From positions 1 through 52,269 of IMG/VR virus record IMGVR_UViG_3300045988_083627: a DNA stretch of 52,269 bases; one strand, 5' to 3'. Below the pieces are notes generated by a model that searched no databases, was not told where the DNA came from, and saw only the letters and a list, made by a program, of their open reading frames with translations. This document shows, in pieces, positions 11,764 to 28,947 of the stretch. Position numbers and translations under genes: made by a program. This stretch comes from a virus. Within the stretch, counting starts at the first letter, position 1. Each line of letters begins with the position of its first letter.

Positions 11764-11765
11764 CT

Positions 11766-11774
11766 TGCTATAAT
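11766..11774 (+). promoter_or_regulatory. extended -10 promoter element TGcTATAAT at the boundary where the low-GC cargo cassette begins
   Basis: TG at 11766-11767 and TATAAT at 11769-11774; GGAGGAG ribosome-binding site and ATG at 11806 downstream. Confidence 0.3.
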
Positions 11775-11805
11775 TGTCTTCAAAGCGAGAAGCGGAGGAG
11801 ACATC

Positions 11806-12120
11806 ATGCCTATTACAAAGATCAATTCATACGACTCTGACGAGGTGTTTAAGCAGAAGTGCAACGAGAACTTCTCGGACATCAACGCCAGAGTCGTTTC
11901 GCGTACTAGTTCTTTACCGGGCTCTACAGTTGGTTCCACAGGGTTCGGCAGCTTTAACGACGTATATCCTATAGGTTCGGTAATTTGCACTACGAAATGG
12001 GCGGAAGACAAAGACAGTCGACTTCAAATTGGCACATGGCGTTATTTAGGATCAAGCATATTTGATGCTAATAACTCGAAAGTTTCTTATCCTGTGCAAT
12101 TCTATGAAAGGATCGCCTAA
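11806..12120 (+). CDS. hypothetical protein (104 aa), first gene of the low-GC cassette
   Basis: GGAGGAG ribosome-binding site before the ATG. Confidence 0.5.
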   Translation: MPITKINSYDSDEVFKQKCNENFSDINARVVSRTSSLPGSTVGSTGFGSFNDVYPIGSVICTTKWAEDKDSRLQIGTWRYLGSSIFDANNSKVSYPVQFYERIA

Positions 12121-14051
12121 TGGGAGTTTGGGACACCATCTTAGATCCATCAACGCTTCTCGCATCGATAAATGAAAAGCTTCTAGATAAAGCTGATAAC
12201 TTTAATCCGGAAAACTTTTCTAAAGATACCAAACAAAGAACTGAAGTTCAAAATCAATTAGTCAGTTCATACGGTAAACCTGATATGCCTGAAGATGTCG
12301 CTATGACCAGGCCGACAGTCATCAAGCCGTTAATCCCAGATAGCATCAAGAGCACAAAAGAACTTGATGAGCTAACTAAATATATGCCTTATGATGTTAA
12401 GTATTCAACTAGAGATAACATCATGCGAAACGGTGGAAATTTAAGCCCTGATGTTCAAAGTCTAGTTGCTCAGTATAGAGAGCCTCAAAAGAACTGGCTT
12501 GAGCAAACTGCTCCTAAAGCTGATGTTATTGCTGATCCTGAACACGAAGGCAGAGTCAGTTTCAATTATTCTGACTTAGATGAGTATGCGAACAATGCAG
12601 TAATGGATCCAGATACCGGGTTGTATCAAATGGCTCCTACACCAGGTAAAGGCGCCGAGCAATTGAACGATAAGATTGCCGAAGGTGTTCATTCTTTCTA
12701 CAGGACTGTTGGTCGGATGCCAACGATTGCCGCTAATCAAATTTGGGGAGAGCCTGAGTATGCCTATAACATGCCATCGGGAAATAGGGCAACTATTGAA
12801 GACTTGAATAATTTCGAAGGACTTATGAACAATAGTTCTTATCTTTTGGCAAAAAATGAGAATGATGAGACTCAGCTATATGACGATCCAGAAAATGCGT
12901 ATCTACAGTTGCCTAGTGGAAACTGGGTTAAGACATATGATGCTGATGAAAATTTCCTTCCTAATGTAAATTATGGAAACTCAATTGATGACACCACACT
13001 TACCTTCAATGATTCCGATGATGTTCTTCCACTTAGAGACTTTTTGGATATCGAGGAAAATCAGCAATATGGAAAGCCAGTTAAAGATTGGGAGGAGCAG
13101 CAGATTCCAGAAGAGCTTCTCCCTAACTCTAATATAACTTGGTCAGAGCTTCTTGATCTCTACGGAAACAAGGACTATACGCCGACTCAGCAAAATCTTG
13201 GCTTCATGAATCTGAACAAAGAGCGCGTAGCAAAATCAGGAGAAGACAACGGAAGTTCTCTCGATAAGATTAAGGACGCACTTCCTGAAGATTTACTTGA
13301 AGGAGACATAAGCGGAGTCCCCAAATGGTTTGCCGACGTCGGGGCCTCATCGCTTCCTTATATGCTAGGACCAATTGGTATAGTCAATGCTCTTATATCA
13401 GGTTCAGCTGATTCCTATCTAGCCAGTCGTGGAATTGATCCAAACTCGTACGATCCCGATACGAGAACTTTTGAAGAGCCGAACGAGGAAACTAATTTAC
13501 AACGAGGACTTAGATCAGCCGGAGCCTTCATAGATCCGACTATTGATGCTTTCGTTGGTGTCGGTAGTGCTAAGCTAGCAAAACATAAAACTCTCCGAAA
13601 TTTCGAAAAAGCAATTCAGGGAGACGAAAAAGCCTTGAAGAACATTGTCAAGGAGCAAAAGAAGATGGACTATCCGATAGTTCCATTGCTGAAAGATAGC
13701 TTAGCTGAAGGCTGGGAAGAAGTACCGGGGCAGTATTTGCAGCATTTAGGAGAGGTTAGTCCAGAGAATGCTGGTCTCAATAAGAACGAAGATGGATCAT
13801 TCGACGAATCGACACCGCTCCAAGAAAGAATTGCAAACGAAGTTTTTGGACATATGGCACCAGATTTTCTTGGAGGAGCACTTTTTGGTGGAGCCTTGGG
13901 CGCAAGAAAACTTCCAGCTGCTATTATGAAAACAAAAGATTCTATGAAGACCAAAAAAGAAAAGTTCAAGGATTATCAAGAAGGAACTGAGGATCGGAAT
14001 CTATCTCCTGCTATTTATCAAACCTTGAAAGATTTAGAGAAAGAGGAATAA
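12120..14051 (+). CDS. large virion/internal (ejected cargo) protein candidate, 643 aa
   Basis: TAATG coupling; low GC; Gly-rich hydrophobic C-terminal segments; sits immediately upstream of the RNAP-like giant gene. Confidence 0.55.
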   Translation: MGVWDTILDPSTLLASINEKLLDKADNFNPENFSKDTKQRTEVQNQLVSSYGKPDMPEDVAMTRPTVIKPLIPDSIKSTKELDELTKYMPYDVKYSTRDNIMRNGGNLSPDVQSLVAQYREPQKNWLEQTAPKADVIADPEHEGRVSFNYSDLDEYANNAVMDPDTGLYQMAPTPGKGAEQLNDKIAEGVHSFYRTVGRMPTIAANQIWGEPEYAYNMPSGNRATIEDLNNFEGLMNNSSYLLAKNENDETQLYDDPENAYLQLPSGNWVKTYDADENFLPNVNYGNSIDDTTLTFNDSDDVLPLRDFLDIEENQQYGKPVKDWEEQQIPEELLPNSNITWSELLDLYGNKDYTPTQQNLGFMNLNKERVAKSGEDNGSSLDKIKDALPEDLLEGDISGVPKWFADVGASSLPYMLGPIGIVNALISGSADSYLASRGIDPNSYDPDTRTFEEPNEETNLQRGLRSAGAFIDPTIDAFVGVGSAKLAKHKTLRNFEKAIQGDEKALKNIVKEQKKMDYPIVPLLKDSLAEGWEEVPGQYLQHLGEVSPENAGLNKNEDGSFDESTPLQERIANEVFGHMAPDFLGGALFGGALGARKLPAAIMKTKDSMKTKKEKFKDYQEGTEDRNLSPAIYQTLKDLEKEE

Positions 14052-14054
14052 ATT

Positions 14055-17000
14055 ATGGGAGGCTTTAGTCAAGACACTCATGTCAATGAAAATTTGGTAG
14101 GAGCAAACCGAGAGCAAAATCAGGGAAATGCTCTTGAAAATATAGTTGAGTCAGAGGCTAACAAAAAAGTACCGACTCTTGATGTTCAGGTTCCTGAAGC
14201 TCAACCTCAGGCTCAATCGCAACCTCAAGCTCAACCTCAAGCTCAGCCCCAGGCACAACCACAGCCTCCAGCTCAGCCTCCCATGTTCTTTTCTGAGGCC
14301 GATTTTCAGTCGTTTATGGATAAAGCGAATAGTATCCAATCGGCAAGAAGAGAAGAGCCCGTCGATCAAACCGAAGATCAAACACAAGGATTCCTTCGTC
14401 CGTCTGTCGTAGCAGAAGGAATGCAATCAAGCAATCAAGTCCTTTCTGAGGATGAGTTCAATAAGCTCACTCAGGATACCAATAAGAGTCTTGCTGGAGA
14501 TAACAGTCTTGAGCAATACGAATGGAAAGGTCTTCCAGAAGAGACTCGCCAAGCGATTATGAGTGGAGGTTTTCTTACCGGTGACAAGCAGATGGATCAG
14601 ATGCTTATCAACGGATATGCCTCCAAGTGGGCAAATGATCAAGCAAACAAAGCATATGCGCAGATTACAAATGCTCAGCTTGAAAGAGATGCTGCTGCTG
14701 GACACGCCGAGTTCTTGGCGGCTCAAGAACAAAGCGATGCAGAAAAGGCTGCTGAAACAAAGAAGAACAACGAGGACCTGATCATCGCTGGTACATCAAA
14801 TCAAAGAGTCTCTGGTCCTAAGACTTCTATTAGTAATCGCGCTCTTGCAAATTCCGTTGAAGTTCGTAAATCCCAGCTCGAACGATCCCTTGATGATTAT
14901 TCTGAAATGGGTAACGAAGTTCATGCTCAATTGTCTGATAATCATTCAGTGCCGATGGATTCGGTTGGTGTAGGTATTGATTTGCTGATGGCGGCTTATC
15001 TTAATGGTGGAAAAGATATTCGTAATCTTGTTGAAAAATACACAGGATTAACTCCCGAGGATTTATCAGCCAACATCCATGAACTACGATCGGCTCTGTA
15101 CAAAACGTTTTCTTACAAGAACCAAATCAGAGTTCCGACAGCTAAGTATCCTGTATCCGAAGACCCATCTGCACAATCCCGTATTATTATTTGTCATTCA
15201 GGGCAAGGTATTTATGTCCATCCTATTGTCCATAAACAGTATAATGCTGACTTCGACGGCGATGAGATGAACGTTGGATTCGATGAGGAGCGAGGCGCTT
15301 CGATTAAAAAGGCTTCAGACTTCTTCCTTTCCTCAGCTAATAAAGCTTTGTTTGATCCGAGCTTTTTTGGGATGAAAAGAATCTTTGATCCAAAGAGTTT
15401 AGGCAATGATTTCACAATGGTGCTAAAAGAGAAGGATATTGTTAATTTGGTATCCAGTTTCTCTGTAACTTATTTTGACCAAAATTTTAACAATGAACTA
15501 ACTTTCAAGATTTCTAATGATGAAGCGAAGAAGATTGCTCGTTTGGTCAATGAGAATTATCGTTATCAGATCGAAGCGGCTCAAGGAAAAAACGTTGAAG
15601 AACGTTCGATATGGGAAGATCTCATGAGAGAGATTACGAACTATGCTTACAACAGTGTAGCTCTTCCTTATGCTGACCAGGTAGCTTGTCGAATTTTGGA
15701 AAAGCTATACAACCTTTCTTACGATGTGAGAATCTTTGATGCTACTGTACTTGATTACAACAATCAGTATATGGGACCAATGGTTCCCGATCAGTATTCT
15801 ACTGACGATTTGAAACCGATCGAGGTATCAGTACCTGATCCTCCTACAAATTTCCTTGATTTGATGGAGGCTTTCGGGATGCCGATTGGGCGCCGCGAAG
15901 GTAAAAACGTCATCTTCCGTATTACTTCTAATTTTGGTAAAGAGATCAAATCAATCATCGAGACGGCTGCCGATCCTTCTGGATGGATCTCGCCGAACCA
16001 ATGGAAGTCTGTTACTGACGAAGTGTTCACCAAGATGATGTCCAGCAGGATTAGCCATGGTGATAGAAAAGTTGCCGTAAATGCCTATATAAGAAGCAGG
16101 GTCATTAGAGAAGTTGGTGTTCCTAACTTTGGTCTTATCCGCCAAGTTTCGGCGGATGGTGTTGTTACTCAGCAAGGATTTGAGGAGTGGATCAATAACT
16201 TCGCAGCTGCCTACAATAGGATGGCTAACGTCGTAAATGCTGCAAACAGTCAGTTTACTACAGACTTGAAGATCATCAACAAAACTGGTATTGACTATAT
16301 TAAGACAATCAATGTTGATGAGTATGGCACTCCTCTAACTCTTAATGAACTCGCTTCTCCGTTCCTTAAAGTTTACGGTGAATACAAGATGGATCGCCTA
16401 TTTGGTGCCATTTCTATCAAAGCATCCAAACGAGCAGAAATGGCCGAGGATTGGCGTGATTGTTATAACCCGGCAATACACGGTCAGTTCACTTTAGCAC
16501 GATGGATTCAAGTAACTCGCTATGCTTCTGGATCTGTTACTGATAAAAAGGGGATGAACAATGTAAGTCCCAAAGCTGGCCCTGAGACTTTTATTCGAGT
16601 GCTGGCTAATCTTCGTTCAAGTTATGCTTCTCGATTCAACAAGCAATTGGAGGATGCTTTAGATAAAACCGCAAAGCAGCTTCGATTCTTTACCAAGTCG
16701 AACCTTATCAACAATCCAGATTATGTAGCAATATCTGAGGCTATGGCTAACAACCTTATGCTATTGGGTCCAGAAGTCTTTGAATATTTCGGTCTCAATA
16801 CGCTCGATGGGTTCAGGTTCAGTACCTTTGGTCAAGAGCTATTGAATTGCGTAAAAGCTCAACCAGGTTACTCTATGGATCCGAACAAGGCCGCCGATAG
16901 GCTTGGCGGTGTCTGGATGAAGATAATGGCTGCATATAGGCTTGATCCGATTATGAGAGATAAGGCTGCCTGGATTAAAGCGAAGAACACTCCTGGAAAA

Positions 17001-20000
17001 TCAGTCAAAGAAATTGCTAAGTTGAAAGAACGTTGGGAGTACAAACTGCAAGAGCTGGCATCGTCTTCCGATCTTTGGAAAGCTTTAGTCCTTGACTTTC
17101 AAAATAACGGCAATGCCATCAATGAGATTCTCCTTGGCAATATGGGAATGAAAGAGAAATGTGATAGACTCGTTTCCCTTATCGGTAAATCGGCCCCTGG
17201 ACGTGTTGGATCCGATATCGACAGGAATCGCCAAAGCTGGGAAGTCCCCTCTATGTTGGTAGCAAATCCAAGAACCTTGACTATGAACAATATGTATATG
17301 ACCGATTTGGGTCATGGAGCTTGGTTAGATAACTTGAGTGATCTTAGTGATCGAATGGATGGATTCGTAAGCAAGAATCTTCTTGATATAAAACGAGACG
17401 TTAAGAAAACAATGACGTACTGCCAAAACAACGGTGTAAGCATCAGTGAGTATTTCTATGACGTGGCATCTGGAAAAGTTCAGATTTCCGTTTGCGATGT
17501 AAACACGTTAGCTAACGGTTTTGTTGCCGGTATTACTCCTACTTACAAATCGACTGAAAAGGGACAAAAAGAAGCAGCAGTTAATCATGGCTACAATACC
17601 GTTTCACTAATTGAGAATGGTGATGTCTTCTCCGATCTGGCTCAATGCGATGATGCTTATTTCAATAAGATTCCTGTAGACCGGCTGATTCGTAATCAAG
17701 TTATGTTGGTTAAAATTCTTACTGACCCAACGTTTTCCGTTGACATTTATGCTGGCGACTCTGATCCGACTACTATCAACCAAGAAGTCCTTTTTGGTCA
17801 TGTTTATCCTTCTGATGAAGAGATCTGGAAATTTTTGTTCAAACATGAACGTCTAGCGATGATGCTTAGGAAGACTTCGTTTAGCTCCAGTTATGATGGT
17901 GAAAGCACTTACAAAGCAGCATCGACGTTGCTAAGCACGATGCAGTCTTATAGTTCTCCAGATTTTCAGTCTGAGGAGTTGTTCAATCGAGCTCTTAATG
18001 CAGTTATCGATAGACCTTCTTTCCAGGCTGTTATGGCTATGTTCATCCCGGTAAAGGGTCAAAAAGGTTACAATGTTGCCCAGATGTACAAAGATAGAAT
18101 CGAATCTGTCATCAAGGGTATTGCTATGCTCGATGGTTTTTCGTATCAAGATATCAGGGCCAAGCTTGATGAAATCGCTCCAGAAATAGAAAACTTCAAA
18201 GAAGTAATCAATGAAGGAGATCTTAATAGGGATTATGGACTCATTGGTCCAGGCCAGCTACTCGATGAGTTTGCTGAGGCTCTTGTCGAGCTTTCTTCCG
18301 ATCTGCATAAGGCTGGAGTTGTTGACGAACTAGGAGAGTCATCTCTGTCCTGGGACGACATCATCTTTGAACCACAGAACCTGATCAACTTCCATAATCA
18401 GAAGCAGCTTTGGAGTGGAGCTAAAACAGCTACTTCAGTTGGTATCAACGGAGCAGAATCGCAGAGAAACGCAGCAATGGGCTGGCTTTCTACGGATGCC
18501 GGGAAAATCGAAGATTGCGGTGGTGGTACAACAACAAGAGTCTCGCTTGAGGAGGTTCAAGAAAACATCAGTGATTACAGAGGAGCTCATACTGTTTCTG
18601 GTATGGAAATCAATTCTGCAACCATTTATGATATTCAACCCGATCAAGATGGAATGATTGAGATTGTGGACAACTTCTCCTGCGAGAGCAAAGGTTGTTG
18701 CTGCCTTAAACACCAGACGGCTGATGCAACTTCGAATGAAGGTACACAAAACCAAACTACAGCTCATGGAGCCTATCTCGGAATCCTTCGTTCTGAAGGC
18801 GCTGAAGGTGGAAACCTTAAAGCAGTGTCGAACCCAGACGGAGTCGACTCCATTATCAAGATTCACATAATGGATGACTACATGAATGGGCAGTTTGAGC
18901 AGATTAAAGACAATGTCACCATACTTGCCGAGACTGGTGCAATTGGAGAAGCTCGAAAGATGCTGGCTAAATCTATGCAGGAGTGGAACTATAGCTGTGG
19001 ATATGATCAATTAGGTCTTCAGGATTACTACAATCTAGCGCACCTGCTCATCAGGGAAACAGAAGATGGTGTTCGTATTGTTTCGGTTGAGCAGTTGAAT
19101 CAGATTATTTCTGAGATTTCAATTCGGCTTCAGAAAGATCCTAAGTTCAAACCAAAAGATGATGACTGGTCGGTGGTATTAAACGAAGCTCTTGAGAACT
19201 GGAAGCCAAGAGGTAAAGTTGATATCGAGAAGGTACTCAACATGATCGAGGTTCCAAGTGTTTCGAACGTTTACAATAAAGGAATCTATCCTTATCTGTC
19301 TTCGTTTGACCGAAACGTTATGCTGATGGATGAGCTGACTGATAAGTATTTCCAACGAAATCCTAATGCTCGTGCATATTCGAAATATGAGCTTGATAAG
19401 ATCGCTCTGGCAATGGAGCAGAAACACTATAAGACTCCATTTGCTGCTTATGTTAAGTCTCATAAATACATACCAGCCAAAAAGAACAACAAGAAGAATA
19501 CCGCTGAAGATCAGAACGATAAAAACAAAAACGAAAAAGAGATGGCGAAGAAAAAGGAAAAAGGAAAAGTTATCGAGAATTATTATAAGAATACCTATCG
19601 ATTCTTTGGGTATTGTTCGTTGAATAATCTTGATTACACCGAGTATCCTGGTCCCAATATTGCTTGGGTTGTCGACAATTCGGCATCTCCTTCCGATGTT
19701 GAGAAAATGATTGAGATAGCAAAACTTAACGGAAACACTGTCTTTTTTGAAGAAAAGCTTCGCCTGGATTCTCAGGAAGTTATTTTCGATGAAGTTCAGA
19801 ATGGGTATGCTCGAATCAACTTAGGAGATAAAAAGGGTAGAGGTTACGTAGTTTCCTTCTTCGATCTCCAGTTGAACGGTCCGGCAAATCCTGAAGGATC
19901 TTTCAATGTCGGCGAATCGCGTTTTAGGCCAGAAGAGCTTGCTAGGTTTGTTTCTGATGAGCTTAATGAAAACAGAAACGGTGATGCTGGCCTTACTGTT

Positions 20001-21407
20001 ACAGAACACTATGCCAATCGTCAGAGAGTTCGAGCAACGAAACGCGAGGAGTTCTTCTGTCAGAATCTGTTTAGAGAACTGATAGATGATGGTATGTTCA
20101 ATTTCTCCGTAAGAATAGCCTCTGTCGCAGATATTAGGCAAATGCTTGAATGGGGACAGAATGGTGGTCCGGGATTCTGTATTGGAGTTGACCCTGATAA
20201 GTACCCTAAGGAGAGGGATCGCTTTTACGAAGCTGTTGCTAGATATTTAGCAAGACTTGATGAAGTATATGATGACGGGTTCCTACCTAGTGCTAGACCC
20301 GATGATATTATCGGATGGGCTATTGCTACAAAGGTAAATAAAGCTGGAGAGGCAGAAGATTACTGGGCCCCCATCCGCGCCTTCGACATCTATAGAGGCG
20401 AGGGCTCGTTCTCGGAATTTGACGTTGATTCGGTAGAATCACATATCAACGAGCGAGGATCTATTGTGGTCAACTACTCTATCGACACGTCGGTGCTCCA
20501 TCATCAATTCAAAATTTTCCAGGATGGTATGGCATCTAACAAGCTAACAAGCGATGGCGAGCCCATGGAAGATCGTCAGTTGAAAAATGGAACTTACCTC
20601 GATGGATACTTTAGCAAGGAATCTACTGAATCAAGAGAGTTGCTTTTGGCTAAAACAAATCCTATATCGACTCTTATGTGGGAATCCCGCCTTGAACCTT
20701 ATCTGTATAATCTTGCTGAGCTTACGGATACCTTCCCTAATAATCCAGACTTGAAGCAAAAGCTATTGAACGGCGATCAAATCACTTTTGATGAATGGAA
20801 TAAGTTCCTAGATAACGATGGAGCATTCTTCTCTGAGGCTTATATTTGGAACAATCCCCAGTGGGGTGATCAAGGTTCGGCAATTATGAACGCCTTCCTT
20901 AAACAAACTTGCCAGAAACTTATGAAGTGCGGAGTTGATCCAGCTACCTTCCTAAGTTCGAGAAACCAAACAGAAGGTCCAACTTACAAGTTCTTCAATT
21001 GGAACATCATGTATAAATCTTCCAACGCTTTCAAAGATTGTATGCTGGCGTTTCATCATTCGATGAATCCGTATCTCTGTCCTGAATATAGCTTAGCTGA
21101 ATACAATGGAGAACTGTTCAACGGTGAGCTTATGGTAGAAACCCCATTCAGAGGAACAGATGGAAAGATTCACTATCGTTGGCAGTATATGGTTACTGGT
21201 CTGCATTTCCTTGATTCTCATTTTGACTCAATGACTGGATTGGCTACTACCGGTAAAGTTTTCAGCGTACCCTCTTTGAACGCTATGACCCTTGGAGGCA
21301 GACCGTTGCGAAAAGATGAAGTTCCATATTATCTTGATTGGCAGAATAGAAACAGAAATGAAAATCAATCTGACGTATTTATTACTACAGATACTGATAT
21401 TCTGTAA
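14055..21407 (+). CDS. giant (2450 aa) virion RNA polymerase-like protein with a double-psi beta-barrel catalytic motif NADFDGD (crAss-like vRNAP / YonO-type)
   Basis: HKQYNADFDGDEMNVGFD matches the universal beta-prime Mg-binding motif; also VKGQKG; 7.35-kb uninterrupted ORF. Confidence 0.75.
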   Translation: MGGFSQDTHVNENLVGANREQNQGNALENIVESEANKKVPTLDVQVPEAQPQAQSQPQAQPQAQPQAQPQPPAQPPMFFSEADFQSFMDKANSIQSARREEPVDQTEDQTQGFLRPSVVAEGMQSSNQVLSEDEFNKLTQDTNKSLAGDNSLEQYEWKGLPEETRQAIMSGGFLTGDKQMDQMLINGYASKWANDQANKAYAQITNAQLERDAAAGHAEFLAAQEQSDAEKAAETKKNNEDLIIAGTSNQRVSGPKTSISNRALANSVEVRKSQLERSLDDYSEMGNEVHAQLSDNHSVPMDSVGVGIDLLMAAYLNGGKDIRNLVEKYTGLTPEDLSANIHELRSALYKTFSYKNQIRVPTAKYPVSEDPSAQSRIIICHSGQGIYVHPIVHKQYNADFDGDEMNVGFDEERGASIKKASDFFLSSANKALFDPSFFGMKRIFDPKSLGNDFTMVLKEKDIVNLVSSFSVTYFDQNFNNELTFKISNDEAKKIARLVNENYRYQIEAAQGKNVEERSIWEDLMREITNYAYNSVALPYADQVACRILEKLYNLSYDVRIFDATVLDYNNQYMGPMVPDQYSTDDLKPIEVSVPDPPTNFLDLMEAFGMPIGRREGKNVIFRITSNFGKEIKSIIETAADPSGWISPNQWKSVTDEVFTKMMSSRISHGDRKVAVNAYIRSRVIREVGVPNFGLIRQVSADGVVTQQGFEEWINNFAAAYNRMANVVNAANSQFTTDLKIINKTGIDYIKTINVDEYGTPLTLNELASPFLKVYGEYKMDRLFGAISIKASKRAEMAEDWRDCYNPAIHGQFTLARWIQVTRYASGSVTDKKGMNNVSPKAGPETFIRVLANLRSSYASRFNKQLEDALDKTAKQLRFFTKSNLINNPDYVAISEAMANNLMLLGPEVFEYFGLNTLDGFRFSTFGQELLNCVKAQPGYSMDPNKAADRLGGVWMKIMAAYRLDPIMRDKAAWIKAKNTPGKSVKEIAKLKERWEYKLQELASSSDLWKALVLDFQNNGNAINEILLGNMGMKEKCDRLVSLIGKSAPGRVGSDIDRNRQSWEVPSMLVANPRTLTMNNMYMTDLGHGAWLDNLSDLSDRMDGFVSKNLLDIKRDVKKTMTYCQNNGVSISEYFYDVASGKVQISVCDVNTLANGFVAGITPTYKSTEKGQKEAAVNHGYNTVSLIENGDVFSDLAQCDDAYFNKIPVDRLIRNQVMLVKILTDPTFSVDIYAGDSDPTTINQEVLFGHVYPSDEEIWKFLFKHERLAMMLRKTSFSSSYDGESTYKAASTLLSTMQSYSSPDFQSEELFNRALNAVIDRPSFQAVMAMFIPVKGQKGYNVAQMYKDRIESVIKGIAMLDGFSYQDIRAKLDEIAPEIENFKEVINEGDLNRDYGLIGPGQLLDEFAEALVELSSDLHKAGVVDELGESSLSWDDIIFEPQNLINFHNQKQLWSGAKTATSVGINGAESQRNAAMGWLSTDAGKIEDCGGGTTTRVSLEEVQENISDYRGAHTVSGMEINSATIYDIQPDQDGMIEIVDNFSCESKGCCCLKHQTADATSNEGTQNQTTAHGAYLGILRSEGAEGGNLKAVSNPDGVDSIIKIHIMDDYMNGQFEQIKDNVTILAETGAIGEARKMLAKSMQEWNYSCGYDQLGLQDYYNLAHLLIRETEDGVRIVSVEQLNQIISEISIRLQKDPKFKPKDDDWSVVLNEALENWKPRGKVDIEKVLNMIEVPSVSNVYNKGIYPYLSSFDRNVMLMDELTDKYFQRNPNARAYSKYELDKIALAMEQKHYKTPFAAYVKSHKYIPAKKNNKKNTAEDQNDKNKNEKEMAKKKEKGKVIENYYKNTYRFFGYCSLNNLDYTEYPGPNIAWVVDNSASPSDVEKMIEIAKLNGNTVFFEEKLRLDSQEVIFDEVQNGYARINLGDKKGRGYVVSFFDLQLNGPANPEGSFNVGESRFRPEELARFVSDELNENRNGDAGLTVTEHYANRQRVRATKREEFFCQNLFRELIDDGMFNFSVRIASVADIRQMLEWGQNGGPGFCIGVDPDKYPKERDRFYEAVARYLARLDEVYDDGFLPSARPDDIIGWAIATKVNKAGEAEDYWAPIRAFDIYRGEGSFSEFDVDSVESHINERGSIVVNYSIDTSVLHHQFKIFQDGMASNKLTSDGEPMEDRQLKNGTYLDGYFSKESTESRELLLAKTNPISTLMWESRLEPYLYNLAELTDTFPNNPDLKQKLLNGDQITFDEWNKFLDNDGAFFSEAYIWNNPQWGDQGSAIMNAFLKQTCQKLMKCGVDPATFLSSRNQTEGPTYKFFNWNIMYKSSNAFKDCMLAFHHSMNPYLCPEYSLAEYNGELFNGELMVETPFRGTDGKIHYRWQYMVTGLHFLDSHFDSMTGLATTGKVFSVPSLNAMTLGGRPLRKDEVPYYLDWQNRNRNENQSDVFITTDTDIL
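14195..14285 (+). repeat. tandem 12-nt repeat encoding (QPQA)n near the N-terminus of the giant RNAP-like protein
   Basis: The unit caacctcaagct is repeated about 6 times. Confidence 0.7.
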
Positions 21408-21430
21408 CAAGCAAGAGAAGGAGAAAAACT

Positions 21431-24400
21431 ATGCCCGGTAAGATGAGCGATGCGGTAAATGCAGCTATATCTAAATTAAATAATCAAAAAGGTAGTATTG
21501 GAGATATTACTACTGATAAAGGTTTTAATCCAAATGACCATGCATTCGACGGCTCAGATATACTTGCCGAGGTTTTGCGTAGGCATCAAGAAGGAGCTGG
21601 AGGGAGCAATGCCGGCGTAGCTCCTGATGCAAGCGCTCCTAAAATTGAGGCAGAAGCTGCAAAAAAACCAGTGGTTCATTCTACTGAGGAAAAGAAGCAA
21701 GCAACAGATTCAAAAGAAACTGACAAAGAATCAGATCGTCAAAATGAAGCTATCAGGCAAGACGATCATCAAGCTAACAATGATGAATCTGGGTTGGCTC
21801 CTAAAGTACAAACCTCCGAAGGGAGAGCTAGAGGAACCAGCTATCAAGATGCTGGTAGCAGTACGGCTCCTCCATCTGTTCCAATTCTTAAACCAAGAAC
21901 AACACCCGAAGAAGGATCTGATGACTTTGTTGGGCCGGTTAAGAATGTTGCTGCTTTAAGAGCATATGCACAGAGGCAGGCAGAAAAAGCCAAAAAGACG
22001 GCTCCAGCTACAGCTCCAATGACTGAAGACTTGCGCAAGAAGATTGCTGAAGCTGTTGCGAAAAAGTCGGGATATAAGAAAATGGGTCAAAAAACCCAAG
22101 ATTATATGAACCGTCAAGCTTTGACCGATGCCAAAAGAAAGCAACTTGTCGCTCAAAGGAAACTTGATAAGGTAATGGGCGATAAAGAAAATTCAGCAGC
22201 AAAACCGAAGCAAAGGTTTAATTTCAACAAGCTATCGGACTTGATGAAAGAGAAAACGAATAAAGACAAATCTAATGAGGTCGGACTCTCTAAGGACGAT
22301 TTAGAGCTTTTTAGTGTCTTTCAAAACGGCAAAATCATCGCTACGAAGATTCGCCTGAAACAAAACGAGAATGATCCAGAAATAGTTAAGGATGCTAAGA
22401 AAGCTACAGAGGTAACTGTTCCTTACAAAATTTCCTCTAATGCTCTTATTAATGAAGAAATCCTTAACAAGGTTGAGTCAAAATACCAGAAGAATATCGA
22501 CGAACTTTGGCAGACGATGGAAGACGACATGGAAATCAGAACTCGATCTAACGCCGAGAGGAGAGCTGAAGAGGCATCTCAAGCAGTTGCTGAAAAAGAA
22601 GAGAAGCTTACTGGTAAGAAGTCAGAAGCAGAATTCAATAAGTATGAACCCAATCTTTCTTATTTGAAAAATGTAGGAAAGGTTCAAGAAGAGGCACCTC
22701 AAGCTAGGGATGTTCCGACTAGCAAAATTGCGGACAACTTGAAAAACGAAGATACGCAAACTGATACAGCCATTGATTGGCTTCAAAACAACGTAGACAT
22801 CGGAAGTGTTGAGGTTAAACATAACCGAGATGATGAGGTATCAAAACGTACAAAAGCCATCAAAGATTCCTTCAGAAAAGGTTTTGGTGTTAAGTCTGAT
22901 GTAAAAGTAGAAGTAAACGTAGATCAAGCAAAAGAATATCTGCAAGCAAATACTGGAGCAGCAAAAGGCACAATTCGAATTCCTGGGTTGATGTCCCGCA
23001 AAACCTATGAAGGGATCAAAGAGCAAGGCAAAGACGAAGCCAAGAAAAAGAAAGAGAAGATAAAGGCTGCTCAAGACAAAAGAGTCAGTATCGAGAATCA
23101 GATCCAGGACATCAAGGCAAAGATCAAAGAAGCGAAAGAGAACACAGAAAAAGACGAGTTTGATAACGCCCAGATTTTCACATATGGAGCTCGACTTAGC
23201 GATCTAACAAAACAGAAGAAAAAAGCTGATTCCGAATACTTCAGCTTGGTCAACAACGGTAAGTTCAAGGGAGTGAAATTTACTGGTGTAGCAAACAAAA
23301 AATTCAATGAACAATTGAAGAACAAAAAAGCAGACAACAAGAAAGACGACAAAGATACAAAATCTTCTTCCAGAATTTATTGGAGCCAAAAGAAGAAAAA
23401 AGAAGAACAAGCCAAAAAGAATCAAATGAAAACAGTTACTTTGCATGATGAAACTTTTGAGCAAGAGTTAGTTTCTGCTTGTAGATTCTTCGGCTGGGAT
23501 CCGGAAGATGAATCTAAAAGAACTCTCGCAATGAAGTGCGCTGTTCTTTACTGCGGTATTTGCATTGATCGAAAAGGTAAGTTGTTTGATAAGAAGTTCA
23601 ACAATTATTACCTTGACGATAAAGTCTACATCGACGCATGGAATCAAATGAAAGCAAACCAACAAGCGCATGGGTTTCCTTTTCTCTATGCAAATACTAA
23701 TTATAAAATTGGTGGAAACTATCGCTTCCCCATGACCATGATGTCACCTGATATCTTAATGGCACTTACTCAAAAGGGAGCATTACTTGAAGGCTGGACT
23801 CCTTATGCTGTGGCAAAGCGAGGTTATAACGAGTTCTTGAACAAAGTAGCGCCTGCCATGTCAGTCAATGCAAAAGAAAATCAGAGACAGGTTATGCAGG
23901 ATCTCTTCCAGTTTGTTGCAGGTGAACTCGGCGATGCTCATCTTGATTCAGGTATAGCTCCTCGCGATTACTTCTCGATTAACGAGGCTTTCGATCCTTT
24001 GAACGATTATGCGATGCTGTTCCCGAATACCGAGGAACTTGTGCGCAACAATGAAAAGTGCAGACAGCGAGCATTAAGAGCTCAAGATAGAATTCAGTCG
24101 AAGAACACCAGAACAGTCAAAGGCGCCGATGGTTCATATCGAACCCTCAGAGACATTGCCATCAACTGCCCAGACGTCTTTGCAGAGGTAGTCAAAGTTC
24201 AGCGCGCTCAATCCCTTATCTTCGATATCACACTTGGAGCATCTTCTGCTCTTGAGCATTTGAAAGGAAATTTCTCTAACTCAATGGCGGCAAAACTCAT
24301 GCTTGCTGATATCGGAAAATCAGGTCCAACTGCTGCGACTTACGAGATTGCTAAAAGTAAAGAGTTCCAAGATATTCTTTTCGACGCCGTCCATCTACTC

Positions 24401-26986
24401 CAAATCGGAGGAAAGGATGGATTAAACTTTGCCATTTCCCAAGGATATACACTTGGCAGAGGAGACGCTCGGGAATACGCTCGAAAATTCCTTGTGTCAA
24501 AGGGTTTGTCGGAGAAGGAATCTGAGGATTACTTGAACATGTCCCCGGCAGAGCAAGCTGCTTTCCTGAAGCAGAACCAAGGAAAAATCCAATTGTGGAT
24601 TAACCGATATTCGGATTTTGCTGCTAATTTCGCTACCGGCGAATGGGTTTGCAAGGGAGGAGACTCTAAACGCTTTGTCGAGTTCCTTGCATACAATACC
24701 CAGAAATATGCAGACCATGGTGGAATGAACATAACTCCAGAACAAATGGAGCGAATGCTCATGCAAAACCCGCAGCAAACCATCACGCAGTTGATGCTTA
24801 GGCCCGAGGGGATGAACTCTCTCGTTATGACGATGGACTCCACTATTGGTGGAGTGAATCCTTTTACTGATTTTTGGGATGAGTTCATGGCTCGAAAAGG
24901 AATAGCAGATATTGCTTTTGCAAACTTTGTAACTTTGTTCCCTAAGTATGGGTTCATGGCAATAGGCAAGATCATGCCAATGTCTCATACCGGTATGTAT
25001 CTCGCATCAAAGGGATACTATGCAACGAAGTCAATGCTAATGGGCGGTGTTAAAGCTGGAGATATTCACGAAGCAGATACGAAGGATCGTCTTGACACCC
25101 TTATCGGAGGCAATGATTCTTTCATTAAGGGCTTGATGCAGAACGTTATTATGGACTTTGCCCAGCTTGGAACAAACGTAATGATGTTCCTTATCGAGGT
25201 TGGTTTCCTTTTGCTTACCGGAATCAAAGAACCTCCTGAGGACGACAAGAAATATGTTTACGAAGAGTGGAGACTGTTCACGAACATCATAGACGGCGGT
25301 GTTGCTATCAAACAAAACTGGTACCTCAATGAGTTCTTTGGAATCATCGGCGGTCCTGCTGCCGTGGCTGCTGCTGGAGCACTTGCTGGAGCAAGCTCTG
25401 ACGTTGCTTTCAAAACGTTCAAGTCTGGAACCTATGAGGTAATGATGAACACTGGTGTTTCCCAGGTTACGAAATTCTGCGAATGGATTACCGACTTTGA
25501 TCAATCTATGGTCATGGCACAGATCGACGGAAACAACAGCAACAGGGCTATTGGTGGAGACTATCTAGCCAATCAGATCCTGCTGACTTTTGCAAAGGGA
25601 GCTGTAAGCACTATCGAGCCTCGATTCATCAAGACTCTTTATAGTTCTCATTTCTTTGGTTCTCAAGATAACCTCGCGCATTCGACATCTCAAGTTTACG
25701 ATCCCGAATCGGAAGATGGAAGAACTATTCCAACGACGATGATTGACAGCATGATTCGTAGGTGGACCTACAATGACCCTGGTGCTGCCTTGGTTATGAA
25801 CACCATCACAGGAAACTGGTGGAACGAGGATGCAACTGGGTATCTTCGTGAGCAAATGCCTCTGATTACCGAGACTGATCCGACAAGTTCTATCTGGCAA
25901 AAACGATTCAGCGAAGTAGATGGAAGGGAGATTACCTGGGACTCTTCTGATGAGGATAAACAGATTGTAGTTGATCGCGTCCTTGATGCTTACAACACTT
26001 ACGGAGGTATTCAAGGCATGGTAAATGCGGGTATCGTTGTTCCGTACGTTACTCGATACTACGTAACTTCTTACCTTCAGGCTCAGAAGAACGCCAACTG
26101 GAATGCTCATTATGAGAGACAATACTCCCGAGGAGGATTCTCTTCTAATGAGGAAAAGGAAGCTTCGGTTGAAAACGTACAGAAGAGCAATGCAGCTCTC
26201 GACCAAAAGATTCAAGAATTCAAAGATAGTAAGCTTCCTTATTCAGCCTACAAACTTCATCGCTATGAAACTGATTACTGGAAAAACTATTATGCAGAAA
26301 ACGAAAATGGAGAGCGAGAGTATCTAACTCCCGATGAGTACCTTCTCAGAAAGCTCTCCGGCGACGACTCTGTTGTTAGAAACAACTACGCATCAGGCGA
26401 TCATAAGTCGGGACTGCCTCCTTACCTTATGGTTGACAATGATGCTGCTAGTAACTCTTTGGCGCCTTGGTATAACAAGGAAGCTGGGTTTGATCGAGAC
26501 CAGCTCCTCTCTGACATCGGAAACGAGAAGATAGAATTTGGTCAGAATAAGGGAAAGACTCTTGCTGAAACAATCGGAGCAGGCGACGGTGAGTGGGCTC
26601 CGACAACAGGTTCTCGTTCCAATGTTTCTGTAAAGAACCCGTTTAGCAACGATTATGAATGGCCTAAGCAATCAGACCCGAATCTTTTCACTGGAAACCT
26701 TGGCGAGAACGGCAAGAATAAAACCAGTGACGAATGGAAGCAGTCGAACAAATCCGGCACTAATGGATCGTCGGCTGGTTGGGGATATACTTCATCTCGT
26801 AGATACAGCAGATCTGGCGGATCTAGCCGAGCAGCTTCTCTCTACTCTCACCCGGCTTCTAGCCTCAGCACTGATCGACCTGTTACTATGTATAGCAAGA
26901 ACAGAAACTACACGAGGTACGATTACCTGCGTCCCGACTTCGAGACCAAGGGTAGCCGCGATGCTTACAAGAGATCGGATATCTAA
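21431..26986 (+). CDS. giant (1851 aa) virion protein; Lys/Glu-rich coiled-coil N-terminus, predicted TM segments, Ser/Arg/Tyr-rich C-terminal tail; candidate ejection or channel-forming cargo protein
   Basis: AAGGAGA ribosome-binding site; hydrophobic segments NVMMFLIEVGFLLLTGI and GIIGGPAAVAAAGALAGA; stop overlaps the portal start (TAATG). Confidence 0.6.
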   Translation: MPGKMSDAVNAAISKLNNQKGSIGDITTDKGFNPNDHAFDGSDILAEVLRRHQEGAGGSNAGVAPDASAPKIEAEAAKKPVVHSTEEKKQATDSKETDKESDRQNEAIRQDDHQANNDESGLAPKVQTSEGRARGTSYQDAGSSTAPPSVPILKPRTTPEEGSDDFVGPVKNVAALRAYAQRQAEKAKKTAPATAPMTEDLRKKIAEAVAKKSGYKKMGQKTQDYMNRQALTDAKRKQLVAQRKLDKVMGDKENSAAKPKQRFNFNKLSDLMKEKTNKDKSNEVGLSKDDLELFSVFQNGKIIATKIRLKQNENDPEIVKDAKKATEVTVPYKISSNALINEEILNKVESKYQKNIDELWQTMEDDMEIRTRSNAERRAEEASQAVAEKEEKLTGKKSEAEFNKYEPNLSYLKNVGKVQEEAPQARDVPTSKIADNLKNEDTQTDTAIDWLQNNVDIGSVEVKHNRDDEVSKRTKAIKDSFRKGFGVKSDVKVEVNVDQAKEYLQANTGAAKGTIRIPGLMSRKTYEGIKEQGKDEAKKKKEKIKAAQDKRVSIENQIQDIKAKIKEAKENTEKDEFDNAQIFTYGARLSDLTKQKKKADSEYFSLVNNGKFKGVKFTGVANKKFNEQLKNKKADNKKDDKDTKSSSRIYWSQKKKKEEQAKKNQMKTVTLHDETFEQELVSACRFFGWDPEDESKRTLAMKCAVLYCGICIDRKGKLFDKKFNNYYLDDKVYIDAWNQMKANQQAHGFPFLYANTNYKIGGNYRFPMTMMSPDILMALTQKGALLEGWTPYAVAKRGYNEFLNKVAPAMSVNAKENQRQVMQDLFQFVAGELGDAHLDSGIAPRDYFSINEAFDPLNDYAMLFPNTEELVRNNEKCRQRALRAQDRIQSKNTRTVKGADGSYRTLRDIAINCPDVFAEVVKVQRAQSLIFDITLGASSALEHLKGNFSNSMAAKLMLADIGKSGPTAATYEIAKSKEFQDILFDAVHLLQIGGKDGLNFAISQGYTLGRGDAREYARKFLVSKGLSEKESEDYLNMSPAEQAAFLKQNQGKIQLWINRYSDFAANFATGEWVCKGGDSKRFVEFLAYNTQKYADHGGMNITPEQMERMLMQNPQQTITQLMLRPEGMNSLVMTMDSTIGGVNPFTDFWDEFMARKGIADIAFANFVTLFPKYGFMAIGKIMPMSHTGMYLASKGYYATKSMLMGGVKAGDIHEADTKDRLDTLIGGNDSFIKGLMQNVIMDFAQLGTNVMMFLIEVGFLLLTGIKEPPEDDKKYVYEEWRLFTNIIDGGVAIKQNWYLNEFFGIIGGPAAVAAAGALAGASSDVAFKTFKSGTYEVMMNTGVSQVTKFCEWITDFDQSMVMAQIDGNNSNRAIGGDYLANQILLTFAKGAVSTIEPRFIKTLYSSHFFGSQDNLAHSTSQVYDPESEDGRTIPTTMIDSMIRRWTYNDPGAALVMNTITGNWWNEDATGYLREQMPLITETDPTSSIWQKRFSEVDGREITWDSSDEDKQIVVDRVLDAYNTYGGIQGMVNAGIVVPYVTRYYVTSYLQAQKNANWNAHYERQYSRGGFSSNEEKEASVENVQKSNAALDQKIQEFKDSKLPYSAYKLHRYETDYWKNYYAENENGEREYLTPDEYLLRKLSGDDSVVRNNYASGDHKSGLPPYLMVDNDAASNSLAPWYNKEAGFDRDQLLSDIGNEKIEFGQNKGKTLAETIGAGDGEWAPTTGSRSNVSVKNPFSNDYEWPKQSDPNLFTGNLGENGKNKTSDEWKQSNKSGTNGSSAGWGYTSSRRYSRSGGSSRAASLYSHPASSLSTDRPVTMYSKNRNYTRYDYLRPDFETKGSRDAYKRSDI

Positions 26987-28947
26987 TGGACAAAGAGCTT
27001 AAGTGGAACATCGACGTTGAGAAGATTAAAGACAAGAGGCTTTCAAAAGTAAAGGCTCGATATGATCAAGCTCGCTCGCAGATGATGCAGCGCACGTATC
27101 ATCACGAGCTTTACGGTCTGCTTGCGAAGAACAAGTCCATCCATCAGTGGTCTACGAAGAAAGGCCAGAGCAAATACTTTAGCGAAGGGTCTACCCAGTA
27201 CATCCTCCGCAAGGTGCTCGCTGATACCATTCAGCGTATGCCCGACGGAGAGCTAACCACGCAGTACGACAAGTCTACGTGGCAACACGTGATCACCCAG
27301 TATCTGTTTGAAAACAAGGTGATGTGGTCGGAGTACGAGGGAATCGACATGCTCTCGAACTTCACCAATACCTTCAAGATGTCGTTCATCTATGCCTTCG
27401 CTCCTGTACGGACTGGCTTCGAGAGGGATGTCGATGGAGATATCCGAATCTCCTACAACCTGGAGAACTGGGCGGACGTCTTTGTTGATCGAGACTGTCG
27501 AGACATCCGCCGACCAGCTGTCGTCTACCATCGCAGCTACCTCTCGAAAGACCAGGTGGAGGAACTTCTCAATGAGGACGGCTCGGTTAAAGACTCGTCC
27601 TATTGCGAGGATACTATCAAGTACATCCTCGATCATGATATGTTCGGTGCTAAGCAATGGGAGTCTGAGAAGCTTTCCGATAAGATGAAGAACTCCACGG
27701 CGCTTCAATCGATCGAGCTTGTTACAGAGTACAAGCGCGGAGCTTCTGAGTTCGTCACGTTTGTTCCTGGACTCAATGCTCCGCTTCGCAAGGTGAAGAA
27801 CTATGACCCTCGCAAGGGTCTGCCGTGGAACTTCTTCGTCCTGGAGCCTGACCCCGACTTCCCGCTTGGAGTCAGCCAGGTTGAGTTTCTCCTATCCGAT
27901 CAGCAGTTCAACGATCTGTTCCAGACCAGTGCCTATAAGAATCTGCTCCTCGCAATGGAGCCGCCTATCATGGTGTCTGGTTGGGAAACCAATCCGTCGT
28001 CCTATGTATTCGAGCCTCGTCGAATCTGGAACCTTGGCAACAATCCGAACCAGGTGAAGGTAGATCCGGTCAAGATCGACAACACGGTTCTCAACAATTG
28101 GACGACCACACGCGAGGCTGTAGCCTCCTCGATGCTCCGCAACCTGAATGTCATGGACGGCACCATCGCGAAGGACTCCGGCACATCGTTCTCCAAGACG
28201 GCTCCTGGCGTGAAGGCTCAGCAGGAGGCCAAGACCATCAATATCAACCAATATCAGAAGAGGCTTGAGAATTTCATCTCGCAATGGGCTACCCAAGCTC
28301 TTCAGATGTACATCTCTGCAATGGGTGGCGAGCATGACATCACCGTCGATGAGGCGACAAGACGCCGTCTTTTCGATATCGGATGCGACGATATGATCAC
28401 CATCGATGGCAAGGTCACTGTTGATTTCGATGAGCTGTCTGCAAACCAGCTTCGCTATCAGGTTCGCGTGGGCTCTCTGGTTCAGCTCAAGGAAGACCAG
28501 GAGCGTGCAGCGCTTTCCGAAGTTGCGCAGCCGTTTGTGCAGAACCTCAACGGATGGTCTGAAGAGAACCGCAAGGTTATCGAGAACGAGGTACTGCTAC
28601 CGATTGCTAAGCGACTGCTCGAACTGTCCAACGTCGATATCGCTCAGACGATGGCTGACAGTCTGTCCACGCAGATTGCGAAGACTATGATGGCCGACAT
28701 GCAGAATCAGATCGACCAGCAGGGTGCCGTGCAGCAGCAGCAAGGACAGCAGATCGCAGACATCCAGAACCAAATGCAGGAGCAACCCGGGGCCATGCCC
28801 CAGGAGCCCATACCCGAGGGATCTCCTTCGGGATTACCACCGGTCGAGGGCGAGGCTCTATCGCCAGGTGCCGAACCCTCACCGACCAGTTCAAGTGAAA
28901 CCCCAGGTCAACAAGTAGTTTCTCCTGAGGATTTGCTTGAATTGTAG
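26986..28947 (+). CDS. putative portal protein (653 aa, Gln-rich acidic disordered C-terminus)
   Basis: Position immediately upstream of the capsid gene; size and C-terminal tail are portal-like. Confidence 0.5.
   Translation: MDKELKWNIDVEKIKDKRLSKVKARYDQARSQMMQRTYHHELYGLLAKNKSIHQWSTKKGQSKYFSEGSTQYILRKVLADTIQRMPDGELTTQYDKSTWQHVITQYLFENKVMWSEYEGIDMLSNFTNTFKMSFIYAFAPVRTGFERDVDGDIRISYNLENWADVFVDRDCRDIRRPAVVYHRSYLSKDQVEELLNEDGSVKDSSYCEDTIKYILDHDMFGAKQWESEKLSDKMKNSTALQSIELVTEYKRGASEFVTFVPGLNAPLRKVKNYDPRKGLPWNFFVLEPDPDFPLGVSQVEFLLSDQQFNDLFQTSAYKNLLLAMEPPIMVSGWETNPSSYVFEPRRIWNLGNNPNQVKVDPVKIDNTVLNNWTTTREAVASSMLRNLNVMDGTIAKDSGTSFSKTAPGVKAQQEAKTININQYQKRLENFISQWATQALQMYISAMGGEHDITVDEATRRRLFDIGCDDMITIDGKVTVDFDELSANQLRYQVRVGSLVQLKEDQERAALSEVAQPFVQNLNGWSEENRKVIENEVLLPIAKRLLELSNVDIAQTMADSLSTQIAKTMMADMQNQIDQQGAVQQQQGQQIADIQNQMQEQPGAMPQEPIPEGSPSGLPPVEGEALSPGAEPSPTSSSETPGQQVVSPEDLLEL

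Follow-up and report, generated by a model that had tools for sequence, protein, structure and literature searches.

The virus record IMGVR_UViG_3300045988_083627 of IMG/VR is 52,269 nucleotides long, and this whole stretch, called the window here, is the subject of our analysis. Its two ends carry an exact 55-bp repeat (1-55 = 52215-52269), and in alignments to related contigs the end of the window runs on into its start, so that the window is a complete, circularly assembled phage genome of ~52.2 kb, with a mean GC content of 47.4%. Between a DUF3310 gene and the portal gene lie a small open reading frame (ORF) for 104 amino acids and three large genes (genes 1, 2, and 3), which encode proteins of 643, 2450, and 1851 amino acids. 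The product of gene 2 resembles in sequence a giant RNA polymerase and is referred to below as the polymerase. We find that these genes belong to a discrete exchangeable cassette of ~14.7-14.9 kb, reaching from ~11.9-12.15 kb to 26.69-26.84 kb, and we conclude that the low GC content of the cassette is a standing property of the pool of cassette genes and not the decaying trace of a recent arrival.

Exact computation gave a total GC content of 42.3% for 11766-26400, compared with 52.3% for 6500-11765 and 51.7% for 26986-39500. The block described in an earlier sequence-only reading is present, but the drop amounts to about 10 points (about 15 relative to the capsid gene) and not to the 20 points estimated there. 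The GC contents at the first and second codon positions (GC1 and GC2) are alike in the cassette and its flanks (cassette GC1 0.50-0.54, GC2 0.36-0.38), whereas the GC content at the third position (GC3) is 0.35-0.42 in the three large genes and 0.61-0.73 in the primase-like, portal, capsid, and tail genes. Synonymous sites account for nearly all of the contrast, and codon choice is shifted in every synonymous family (cassette vs backbone: AAA, 0.55 vs 0.19; ATC, 0.40 vs 0.82). Likelihood segmentation of in-frame third codon positions placed the change points at 11892 and 26896 (two-unit support intervals 11883-11964 and 26881-26914; log-likelihood gains 154 and 104), giving segments with a GC3 of 0.654 (7178-11889), 0.394 (11892-26893), and 0.651 (26896-35400). 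Both edges had been located roughly but not exactly by the earlier reading. The TGCTATAAT element at which the drop was said to begin is there, but GC3 falls ~120 nt downstream of it, inside the 104-aa ORF, whose first half has a GC3 of 0.61 and whose second half has a GC3 of 0.34. Similarly, the recovery does occur within gene 3, but over the last ~30-50 codons (~150 nt) rather than ~600 nt: GC3 is 0.35 in the part encoding the N terminus, rises to 0.43-0.49, stands at 0.44-0.47 just upstream of 26836-26983, and reaches 0.60 in 26836-26983.

Contigs from IMG/VR, Logan, ENA, and GTDB provided sister genomes with backbones of 88-95% nucleotide identity, portals of 99.1-99.7% protein identity, and terminases of 98-99% protein identity. 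Between the junctions there is no DNA similarity, while the same three-gene layout is kept with proteins that are 22-53% identical. At least four cassette types (W, A, B, and C) occur on this backbone, and three of the types were each found in at least two independent assemblies. Type W is carried by the window, by 3300045988_092066 (identical to UMLL01017484), and by a Logan contig from ERR10115377; type A by 3300045988_108463 and by a contig binned with a Collinsella metagenome-assembled genome (MAG); type B by 3300045988_139779 and 3300014963_000047; and type C by 3300045988_096821. The polymerases are 22% (W vs A), 42% (W vs B), and 22% (A vs B) identical, and gene 3 products of different types are 23-53% identical. 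The positions at which homology breaks are given in Table 1; type A stays 95% identical to the window up to 12125, and the GC3 change points lie within ~60 nt of homology breakpoints (on the 5' side, the type B break). Backbones that carry the same cassette type are no closer to one another than backbones that carry different types (92-94% vs 93-95%), and cassettes of one type have diverged as much as the backbones that carry them (94-96% vs 94-95% nucleotide identity). Because of these two observations, replacement by recombination is demonstrated, and both hyper-evolution in place and an assembly artefact are ruled out.

The pattern is that of modular mosaicism, with four types of non-alignable modules set between sequence common to all variants, namely 11740-11900 (or to 12125) on one side and 26836-26986 plus the portal gene on the other. 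It bears out the proposal, made from the sequence alone, that a module was replaced with a junction in the last cargo gene and with the portal-proximal C terminus retained, since near-identical backbones (portals 99-99.7%) carry different cassettes and the 3' breaks fall at that place. In this phage population the entire cassette is swapped as a unit by homologous recombination in two short conserved adapters. On the 5' side, exchange takes place within about 33 codons at the beginning of the small upstream ORF, or else where gene 1 begins; on the 3' side, it takes place in the final ~50 codons of gene 3 and in the portal gene. Exchange of the whole cassette at the adapters explains why portals and terminases that are ~99% identical stand beside polymerases that are 22-42% identical. 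Recombination has also taken place inside cassettes, which are themselves mosaic, as seen in gene 1, where the first 88 codons of types A and B are 90% identical before the divergence becomes complete (contig L018 from 13808 onward, contig L016 from 13257 onward).

Table 1. Positions of cassette features, homology breakpoints, and other genes in the window.
Feature	Position	Strand	Remarks
TGCTATAAT, extended -10-like element	11767..11775	+	directly after the DUF3310 stop codon; followed by a GGAGGAG ribosome-binding site
104-aa ORF, mosaic 5' adapter	11806..12120	+	about the first 33 codons common to all sister phages; remainder moves with the cassette
5' junction, type B	~11905		identity drops inside the small ORF
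5' junction, types A and B	12123-12163		DNA similarity stops (BLAST)
Gene 1, 643 aa	12120..14051	+	acidic, Asn-rich; GC3 0.35
Gene 2, 2450 aa	14055..21407	+	giant RNA polymerase-like, predicted beta-prime-type double-psi beta-barrel; GC3 0.39
NADFDGD codons (aa 397-403)	15243..15263	+	predicted metal-binding aspartate triad
Gene 3, 1851 aa	21431..26986	+	N-terminal ~730 aa Lys/Glu/Ala-rich; hydrophobic segments at aa 1244-1265 and 1302-1321
3' junction, type B	26687		
3' junction, type A (two contigs, L033 included), type C, and L006	26836-26843		
Conserved C-terminal adapter, last ~50 aa of gene 3 (...IYSHPASSLSTDRPVTMYSKNRNYTRYDYLRPDFETKGSRDAYKRSDI)	26836..26986	+	3' recombination junction; gene 3 stop overlaps the portal ATG
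Portal gene	26986..28947	+	PHROG 332 match; GC3 0.66; first backbone gene past the cassette
Capsid-like gene with Ig domain	29014-30801		
Rightward genes	7.2 to 42.8 kb	+	
DUF5906 primase-like gene	8432-9595		within the rightward arm
dUTPase gene and DUF3310 gene			DUF3310 stop codon at 11761-11763
CHAP endolysin gene	42065-42778		
Leftward genes	~0.8-6.1 kb and 42.8-52.2 kb	-	one single arm on the circular map
Terminase gene	42815-44344	-	
YqaJ-like exonuclease gene	47495-48265	-	

In one type A contig, 108463 (L003 5137-10001), the last cargo gene is split into an ORF of 1269 aa and ORFs of 124 and 131 aa, which may be a frameshift, a pseudogene, or a sequencing error. The Collinsella-binned contig (L033 5169-10001), which is 93% identical to 108463, has this gene intact with 1611 codons (1610 aa). 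Scans of IMG/VR and of metagenomes for more W-type cassettes each found only the 092066 strain, as itself in the former and as the identical ENA contig in the latter, and a megablast search with the cassette and the structural half of the genome against deposited phages gave no match.

The polymerase scored 24.1 bits with the Pfam model RNA_pol_Rpb1_2 (PF00623), for which the cut-off is 25.3. Profiles built from its family match the Mg-site region of the beta-prime subunit in many RNA polymerases (RNAPs) of the PDB, with E=3.5e-7 for a profile of 5 sequences and 5.4e-9 for one of 30 sequences. D399, D401, and D403 of the NADFDGD motif are invariant across 30 members of the family, whose identities range over 19-77%. 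These matches indicate that the protein carries a beta-prime-type barrel with the DxDxD triad. K1169, R1579, and E1584 are likewise invariant in the family, K1589 and K1602 are nearly so, and all five are candidates for residues of a second barrel. An exhaustive representative search revealed a family of 133 clusters at 50% identity, nearly all of 2,200-2,800 aa and one of 4,538 aa, while a word-indexed homologue search, profile query included, had returned just five polymerase homologues. A Gln-Pro-Ala repeat (QPQAQPQAQPQAQPQ...) at 14200-14280 (aa 50-75) is a low-complexity linker upstream of the catalytic region.

Gene 1 has no Pfam or PHROG match; its product is 36% identical to the type B homologue, aligns with the type A protein at the N terminus only, and is presumed to be an internal or ejected virion protein. 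Over aa 430-1851, the gene 3 product has 53% identity to that of type B, and it matches that of type A in patches of 23-31% identity; it is presumed to be a membrane-inserting ejection protein. PHROG and Pfam searches with the cassette proteins and seven alternative alleles found no domains other than the weak Rpb1_2 match and a sub-threshold NPCBM match. The ratio of substitution rates at codon positions 1+2 to position 3 is ~0.15 in the cassette and ~0.05 in the backbone, and since this is a mark of purifying selection, the cassette genes are functional. By analogy with known phages, we presume that the polymerase is a virion-packaged RNA polymerase. Most likely, all three giant proteins are packaged in the capsid and ejected into the host, as the synteny with the EK/Burro phages and the analogy to the crAss-like protein gp66 (both discussed below) suggest; the ejected proteins would then open the envelope and start early transcription.

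All four cassette types on this backbone are poor in GC3 (0.39-0.48, compared with 0.69-0.70 for the backbone), although no members of the family are further apart than they are from one another. Of 19 lineages with a portal/capsid GC3 between 0.39 and 0.96, 17 had a lower GC3 in the cassette than in the portal and capsid genes, and the gap ranged from -0.02 to +0.31 (sign test p=7e-4, with independence limited by the backbone that four of the lineages share). Across these lineages, cassette and backbone GC3 are correlated (r=0.86), and a C-like cassette in the higher-GC relative L006 has a GC3 of 0.80. The relative L021 carries a W-type cassette (67-76% protein identity) together with a portal of 85% and a dUTPase of 77% identity, and with a cassette GC3 of 0.48 vs 0.79 it shows the same gap, 0.31, after ~25% nucleotide divergence, over which cassette and backbone have roughly co-diverged. 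In dinucleotide signature, the W cassette is 37-52 from the A and B cassettes but 75-125 from its own backbone. We polarised substitutions by three-taxon parsimony, using singleton differences at third positions among three W-type genomes. The cassette had 314 AT-to-GC changes at 2474 AT sites and 385 GC-to-AT changes at 1714 GC sites, which corresponds to an equilibrium GC3 of 0.36 (bootstrap 0.33-0.39), compared with 0.41 now; for the backbone, four different trios gave an equilibrium of 0.52-0.55, compared with 0.65-0.70 now. The AT-to-GC rate per site in the cassette was half that of the backbone (p=4e-8), while the GC-to-AT rate was similar. Because its equilibrium GC3 is at or below the present value, the cassette is not ameliorating upward.

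Measured against what is expected of a recently acquired island, the cassette does have an atypical composition with sharp edges at homology breakpoints, but it shows no amelioration toward the resident composition, and no donor of matching composition could be identified by sequence comparison. The GC contrast is therefore poor evidence of a recent foreign origin, the view implied when only the sequence was considered: all four types are GC3-poor, the deficit recurs in 17 of 19 lineages, the gap persists in L021, and there is no upward amelioration. On our reading, low GC3 is maintained because the cassette fixes AT-to-GC changes at about half the per-site rate of the backbone. Such a bias could come from weaker selection for C- or G-ending codons in the cassette or from a lack of GC-biased repair where divergent cassettes cannot recombine homologously; historical input by AT-richer donors may also have contributed to the low GC3. 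A more speculative possibility is that the two tiers of GC3 reflect GC-biased repair acting only where sister phages recombine homologously.

Overall, we think it likely that the best explanation is a swappable cassette, exchanged by recombination in its adapters, with a standing low GC3. Several points weigh against this explanation, on the side of the proteins as well as on that of the composition. The profile searches gave no match to beta subunits, and only one of the two expected barrels was detected. An AlphaFold model of polymerase aa 250-1449, made with a 6-sequence alignment, was unusable (pLDDT of 37, pTM of 0.25), and packaging, ejection, and polymerase activity are predictions. Expression level does not account for the GC3 pattern and fits poorly as the cause of a high backbone GC3, as GC3 is no lower in the genes for the primase-like protein (0.73) and the dUTPase (0.67) than in the capsid gene. 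The substitution counts come from one cassette type and from three-taxon parsimony, and the AT-to-GC rate of the backbone may look too high if recombination has imported sequence there. Since both compartments are above their equilibria, they may have started from unequal values in a genome that is drifting AT-ward, which leaves room for a historical donor component. Donors of low GC are available in principle, as the low-GC family member L030 has a cassette GC3 of 0.31. Lastly, the gap is 0.22-0.31 in this lineage and 0-0.13 in 10 of 14 others, and a universal mechanism alone is insufficient to explain it.

Some of these points would fit better if the cassette had recently been imported from a phage whose host is lower in GC, in which case the GC contrast would be the un-ameliorated scar of a single event. 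The cassette has demonstrably been replaced horizontally, and its edges coincide with the GC3 steps. Besides L030, another family member has a low cassette GC3 (L032, 0.42), and the gap is unusually large in this lineage. In addition, the backbone has a net GC-to-AT flux (545 vs 336 changes), which would fit a high-GC backbone that came into a lower-GC setting and took up local cassettes. Against such an import stand the four mutually divergent cassette types that all have a GC3 of 0.39-0.48 and a deficit of the same sign in 17 of the 19 lineages over the full range of backbone GC3. L021 keeps its gap after ~25% nucleotide divergence, and the W cassette has no excess of AT-to-GC changes. Moreover, in exhaustive protein searches the closest cassettes, at 96-97% and 76-78% identity, were both on this backbone family, and the other polymerase clusters were at most 44% identical. 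We consider a recent import of this kind unlikely, while giving it some weight.

Two further explanations are very improbable. The first holds that cargo proteins rich in Asn, Lys, Asp, and Glu, or disordered, would by themselves lower the GC content. The N-terminal ~730 aa of the gene 3 product are indeed Lys/Glu/Ala-rich, and there is a strong A-skew at 21.5-23.5 kb, but cassette GC1 and GC2 match those of backbone genes and the difference resides at third positions (0.39 vs 0.65) within every synonymous codon family; the breakdown by codon position thus contradicts amino-acid composition as the cause. The second holds that the cassette evolves extremely fast in each lineage, by relaxed or diversifying selection or by targeted mutagenesis, with no transfer. 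Cassette proteins do change ~3x faster than portal and capsid at non-synonymous positions, and the giant proteins of EK/Burro phages are <30% identical (Jacobs-Sera et al., PMC7302621). Nevertheless, synonymous divergence within a type is the same in cassette and backbone, a clock too slow to yield 22% identity beside 99% identical portals; the boundaries are knife-sharp and common to several relatives; one cassette type sits on backbones as different mutually as from backbones of other types; and the 88 codons shared by types A and B are a recombination mosaic. Within-type divergence and the sharp shared boundaries contradict divergence in place, and we reject it. As for an assembly chimera of two phages of different GC, for which only the abrupt compositional steps speak, we give it practically no chance, as the same joins are contiguous in independent assemblies (L022 from Logan ERR10115377, which spans 11491-31410; 3300045988_092066 at the 3' junction; and UMLL01017484 at the 5' junction), ORFs are intact over both joins with overlapping stop and start codons at 26984-26988, and the contig circularises by its 55-bp overlap.

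The adapters may do more than provide sites for the exchange of the cassette. The gene 3 product ends in a Gly/Ser/Tyr-rich linker followed by the tail ..IYS.P...DR..M..K..Y....YLRP.F.TKGSR(D/E)AY(K/R)RSD(I/L/M/F). Relatives with portals of 63-68% identity keep this tail at the protein level while using other codons for it, and it is faint in Araxxi, an EK/Burro phage; such conservation speaks for a function of the tail itself. We propose, on the strength of this sequence conservation, that it docks the cargo to the portal or capsid and is a candidate virion-docking signal, and it would probably keep any cassette compatible with the resident portal or capsid. What all types have in common on the 5' side is the promoter-like element together with the ribosome-binding site and about 33 codons from the beginning of the small ORF. 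The TGCTATAAT element is identical in types W, A, and B, though not in L021; from its sequence, it is a possible promoter of the cassette operon for the host RNAP. A consensus scan of 11-29 kb for promoters and terminators gave matches no commoner than in shuffled sequence, and the TGCTATAAT element, which has no matching -35 element, was not among them. A bolder idea, to which we give about one chance in several, is that the tail (last ~50 aa), possibly with the N terminus of the small ORF, is a universal plug for the cargo of any cassette, so that the apparatus for ejection and early transcription would be a plug-and-play unit traded against entry blocks raised by hosts or prophages.

Polymerases with only 22% identity serve early regions that hardly differ, so that initiation either does not depend on specific sequences or relies on an element for specificity that travels separately. 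A candidate for such a separately travelling element is the first gene of the leftward arm (5600-5902, minus strand, taken with 5265-6073), which encodes 100 aa. It is hypervariable, and its type co-segregates with the cassette type: the two W-type versions are 76% identical and the two B-type versions 75%, W and B are ~40-46% identical over half the length, and the type A gene is unrelated. The gene could encode a polymerase partner or mark the start region of the polymerase, with the qualification that few genomes were compared and that mosaicism extends over the whole early region. Next to it, between the divergent gene arms, ~1.25 kb (5920-7176) are free of a convincing ORF. In this region, GC-rich and AT-rich stretches alternate, the sequence from 6073 onward is 88-92% conserved in sister phages, and there is no Rfam match; it is a candidate control or origin region.

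Low GC3 is also found outside the cassette. The earlier observation that low-GC genes on the minus strand are interleaved with high-GC ones was confirmed: GC3 is 0.38 at 47495-48265 and 0.37 at 49139-49444, compared with 0.70 at 46301-46705. The two low-GC3 genes, the YqaJ-like exonuclease gene and a 101-aa ORF (49139-49444, minus strand), have a cassette-like GC3 yet are 91-93% conserved in sister phages, and for this reason low GC3 is not confined to loci that are currently variable. The exonuclease is a possible part of a phage recombination system. A second low-GC3 island (39359-41304, GC3 0.41-0.44), which probably covers the tip of a tail fibre and a small ORF, is swapped among sister phages too, in exchanges that are independent of the cassette: 096821, which carries type C, is 92% identical to 39948-40937, and the others do not align. 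Both this region and the genes at 4107-5902 are GC3-low and variable among sister phages, and the low-GC3 patches outside the cassette agree in part with the idea that flexible modules are GC3-poor. Within a 519-aa gene of the tail region, 37283-37915 does not align to 092066, which is otherwise 94% identical, a small mosaic replacement. In L030, a relative with 39% GC, an ORF with a NADAR domain lies between the polymerase gene and the last cargo gene (L030 9146-9607), possibly an extra cargo acting on ADP-ribosylation. A tRNA scan and an Rfam scan of the genome found nothing.

The CHAP endolysin points to a Gram-positive host, as do the actinobacterial relatives; this host is probably a gut bacterium and not Microbacterium. 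The MAG bins of related contigs are contradictory, with two Coriobacteriia (Collinsella and Senegalimassilia) and two Bacteroidales, and we regard them as weak hints.

If the assignments made here hold, the phages of this group would be an extreme natural experiment, in which virion and packaging genes are ~99% identical and the machinery for entry and early transcription is as divergent as any in a large polymerase family (at least 133 clusters at 50% identity). They make it possible to test what decides whether cargo is incorporated into capsids, what guides a packaged polymerase to its start sites, and which defences of hosts or prophages drive the diversification of the entry step. For genome scans, they also carry a caution: even where a sharp GC step marks a true recombination junction, it does not prove that the donor had a foreign composition.

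Among cultured phages, the EK/Burro group of Microbacterium podophages is the nearest to the window phage. A tblastn search with the portal against 58 Microbacterium and Arthrobacter phages gave E values down to 1e-42, and the portal is homologous to annotated EK/Burro portals (27% identity, E 4e-41). Like the window phage, these phages have genomes of ~52-54 kb with a leftward and a rightward gene arm, and a giant coding sequence of ~13.5-15 kb lies directly upstream of the portal gene and reaches up to its start codon. In Araxxi, the gene for gp27 (4494 aa) runs 10 nt into the portal gene, comparable to the overlap of the gene 3 stop codon with the portal ATG in the window. Araxxi gp27 has a DFDGD motif at aa 872, and its Gly-rich linker and subsequent basic C-terminal tail are faintly alignable. 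The 13-kb gene of these phages was reported to be virion-associated (Burro gp27) and hyper-divergent (<30% identity), with an unknown role (Jacobs-Sera et al. 2020, PMC7302621). Our data suggest a likely function for this unexplained giant gene, namely a beta-prime-type RNA polymerase within a set of ejected proteins. There are also clear differences. The EK/Burro phages have one ORF of ~4,500 aa where the window has three genes; a tblastn search with the 2450-aa protein against 50,697 phage records found nothing; the giant gene of Araxxi is without a GC3 deficit (0.945 vs 0.933); and, as far as the literature examined goes, no swap on a near-identical backbone has been described in that group. 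The portal alone matched, and for this reason the window phage appears from its sequence to be only a distant relative and not a member of the cluster, with which it shares neither at least 35% of genes nor similarity of the giant protein.

In the crAss-like phage phi14:2, gp66 is a packaged polymerase for early genes, and the gp66 gene itself is a middle gene transcribed by the host RNAP (bioRxiv 10.1101/2020.03.07.982082). As in gp66 (PDB 6VR4; Drobysheva et al.), the polymerase is a single chain of >2,000 aa with a beta-prime-like DxDxD motif, its gene is in the region of virion genes, and here a promoter-like element of host type lies upstream. Unlike gp66, it has its motif, the canonical NADFDGD, close to the N terminus at aa 397-403, whereas DFDID is at ~aa 1361 in gp66, and there was no direct sequence match to crAss-like polymerases or to 6VR4 among the matches listed. 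The backbone is unrelated to that of the Crassvirales.

The closest functional analogue is found in P22-like phages, whose ejection-protein genes for gp7, gp20, and gp16 are among the most variable virion genes, with gp16 proteins of 22-26% identity in related phages (Leavitt et al. 2024, PMC10883804, and work cited there). Sets of these ejection proteins still assemble and function after exchange of the whole set, and they are targets of superinfection exclusion (PMC10883804). In both cases, variable genes for internal or ejected proteins are part of an otherwise conserved virion module, and by analogy superinfection exclusion is a plausible driver of the diversification of the ejection proteins. 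In the window phage, unlike the P22-like phages, the swapped unit is ~15 kb, more than one quarter of the genome, and includes a polymerase, and it has conserved adapters at both ends and a distinct synonymous composition.

Modular exchange at conserved linkers is classic phage biology, and DNA that is accessory or was gained by horizontal transfer tends to have a higher AT content than core genes. Like a genomic island, the cassette is a discrete compositional deviation with edges at homology breakpoints and with allelic replacements in close relatives. Unlike an island, it shows no sign of amelioration and is an essential, always-present locus with alternative alleles, not an insertion that is present or absent. 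Relative to known mosaicism, what is new is the scale of the exchange, the inclusion of a polymerase, the step from 99% to 22% identity across a 150-nt adapter, and a stable two-tier synonymous composition.

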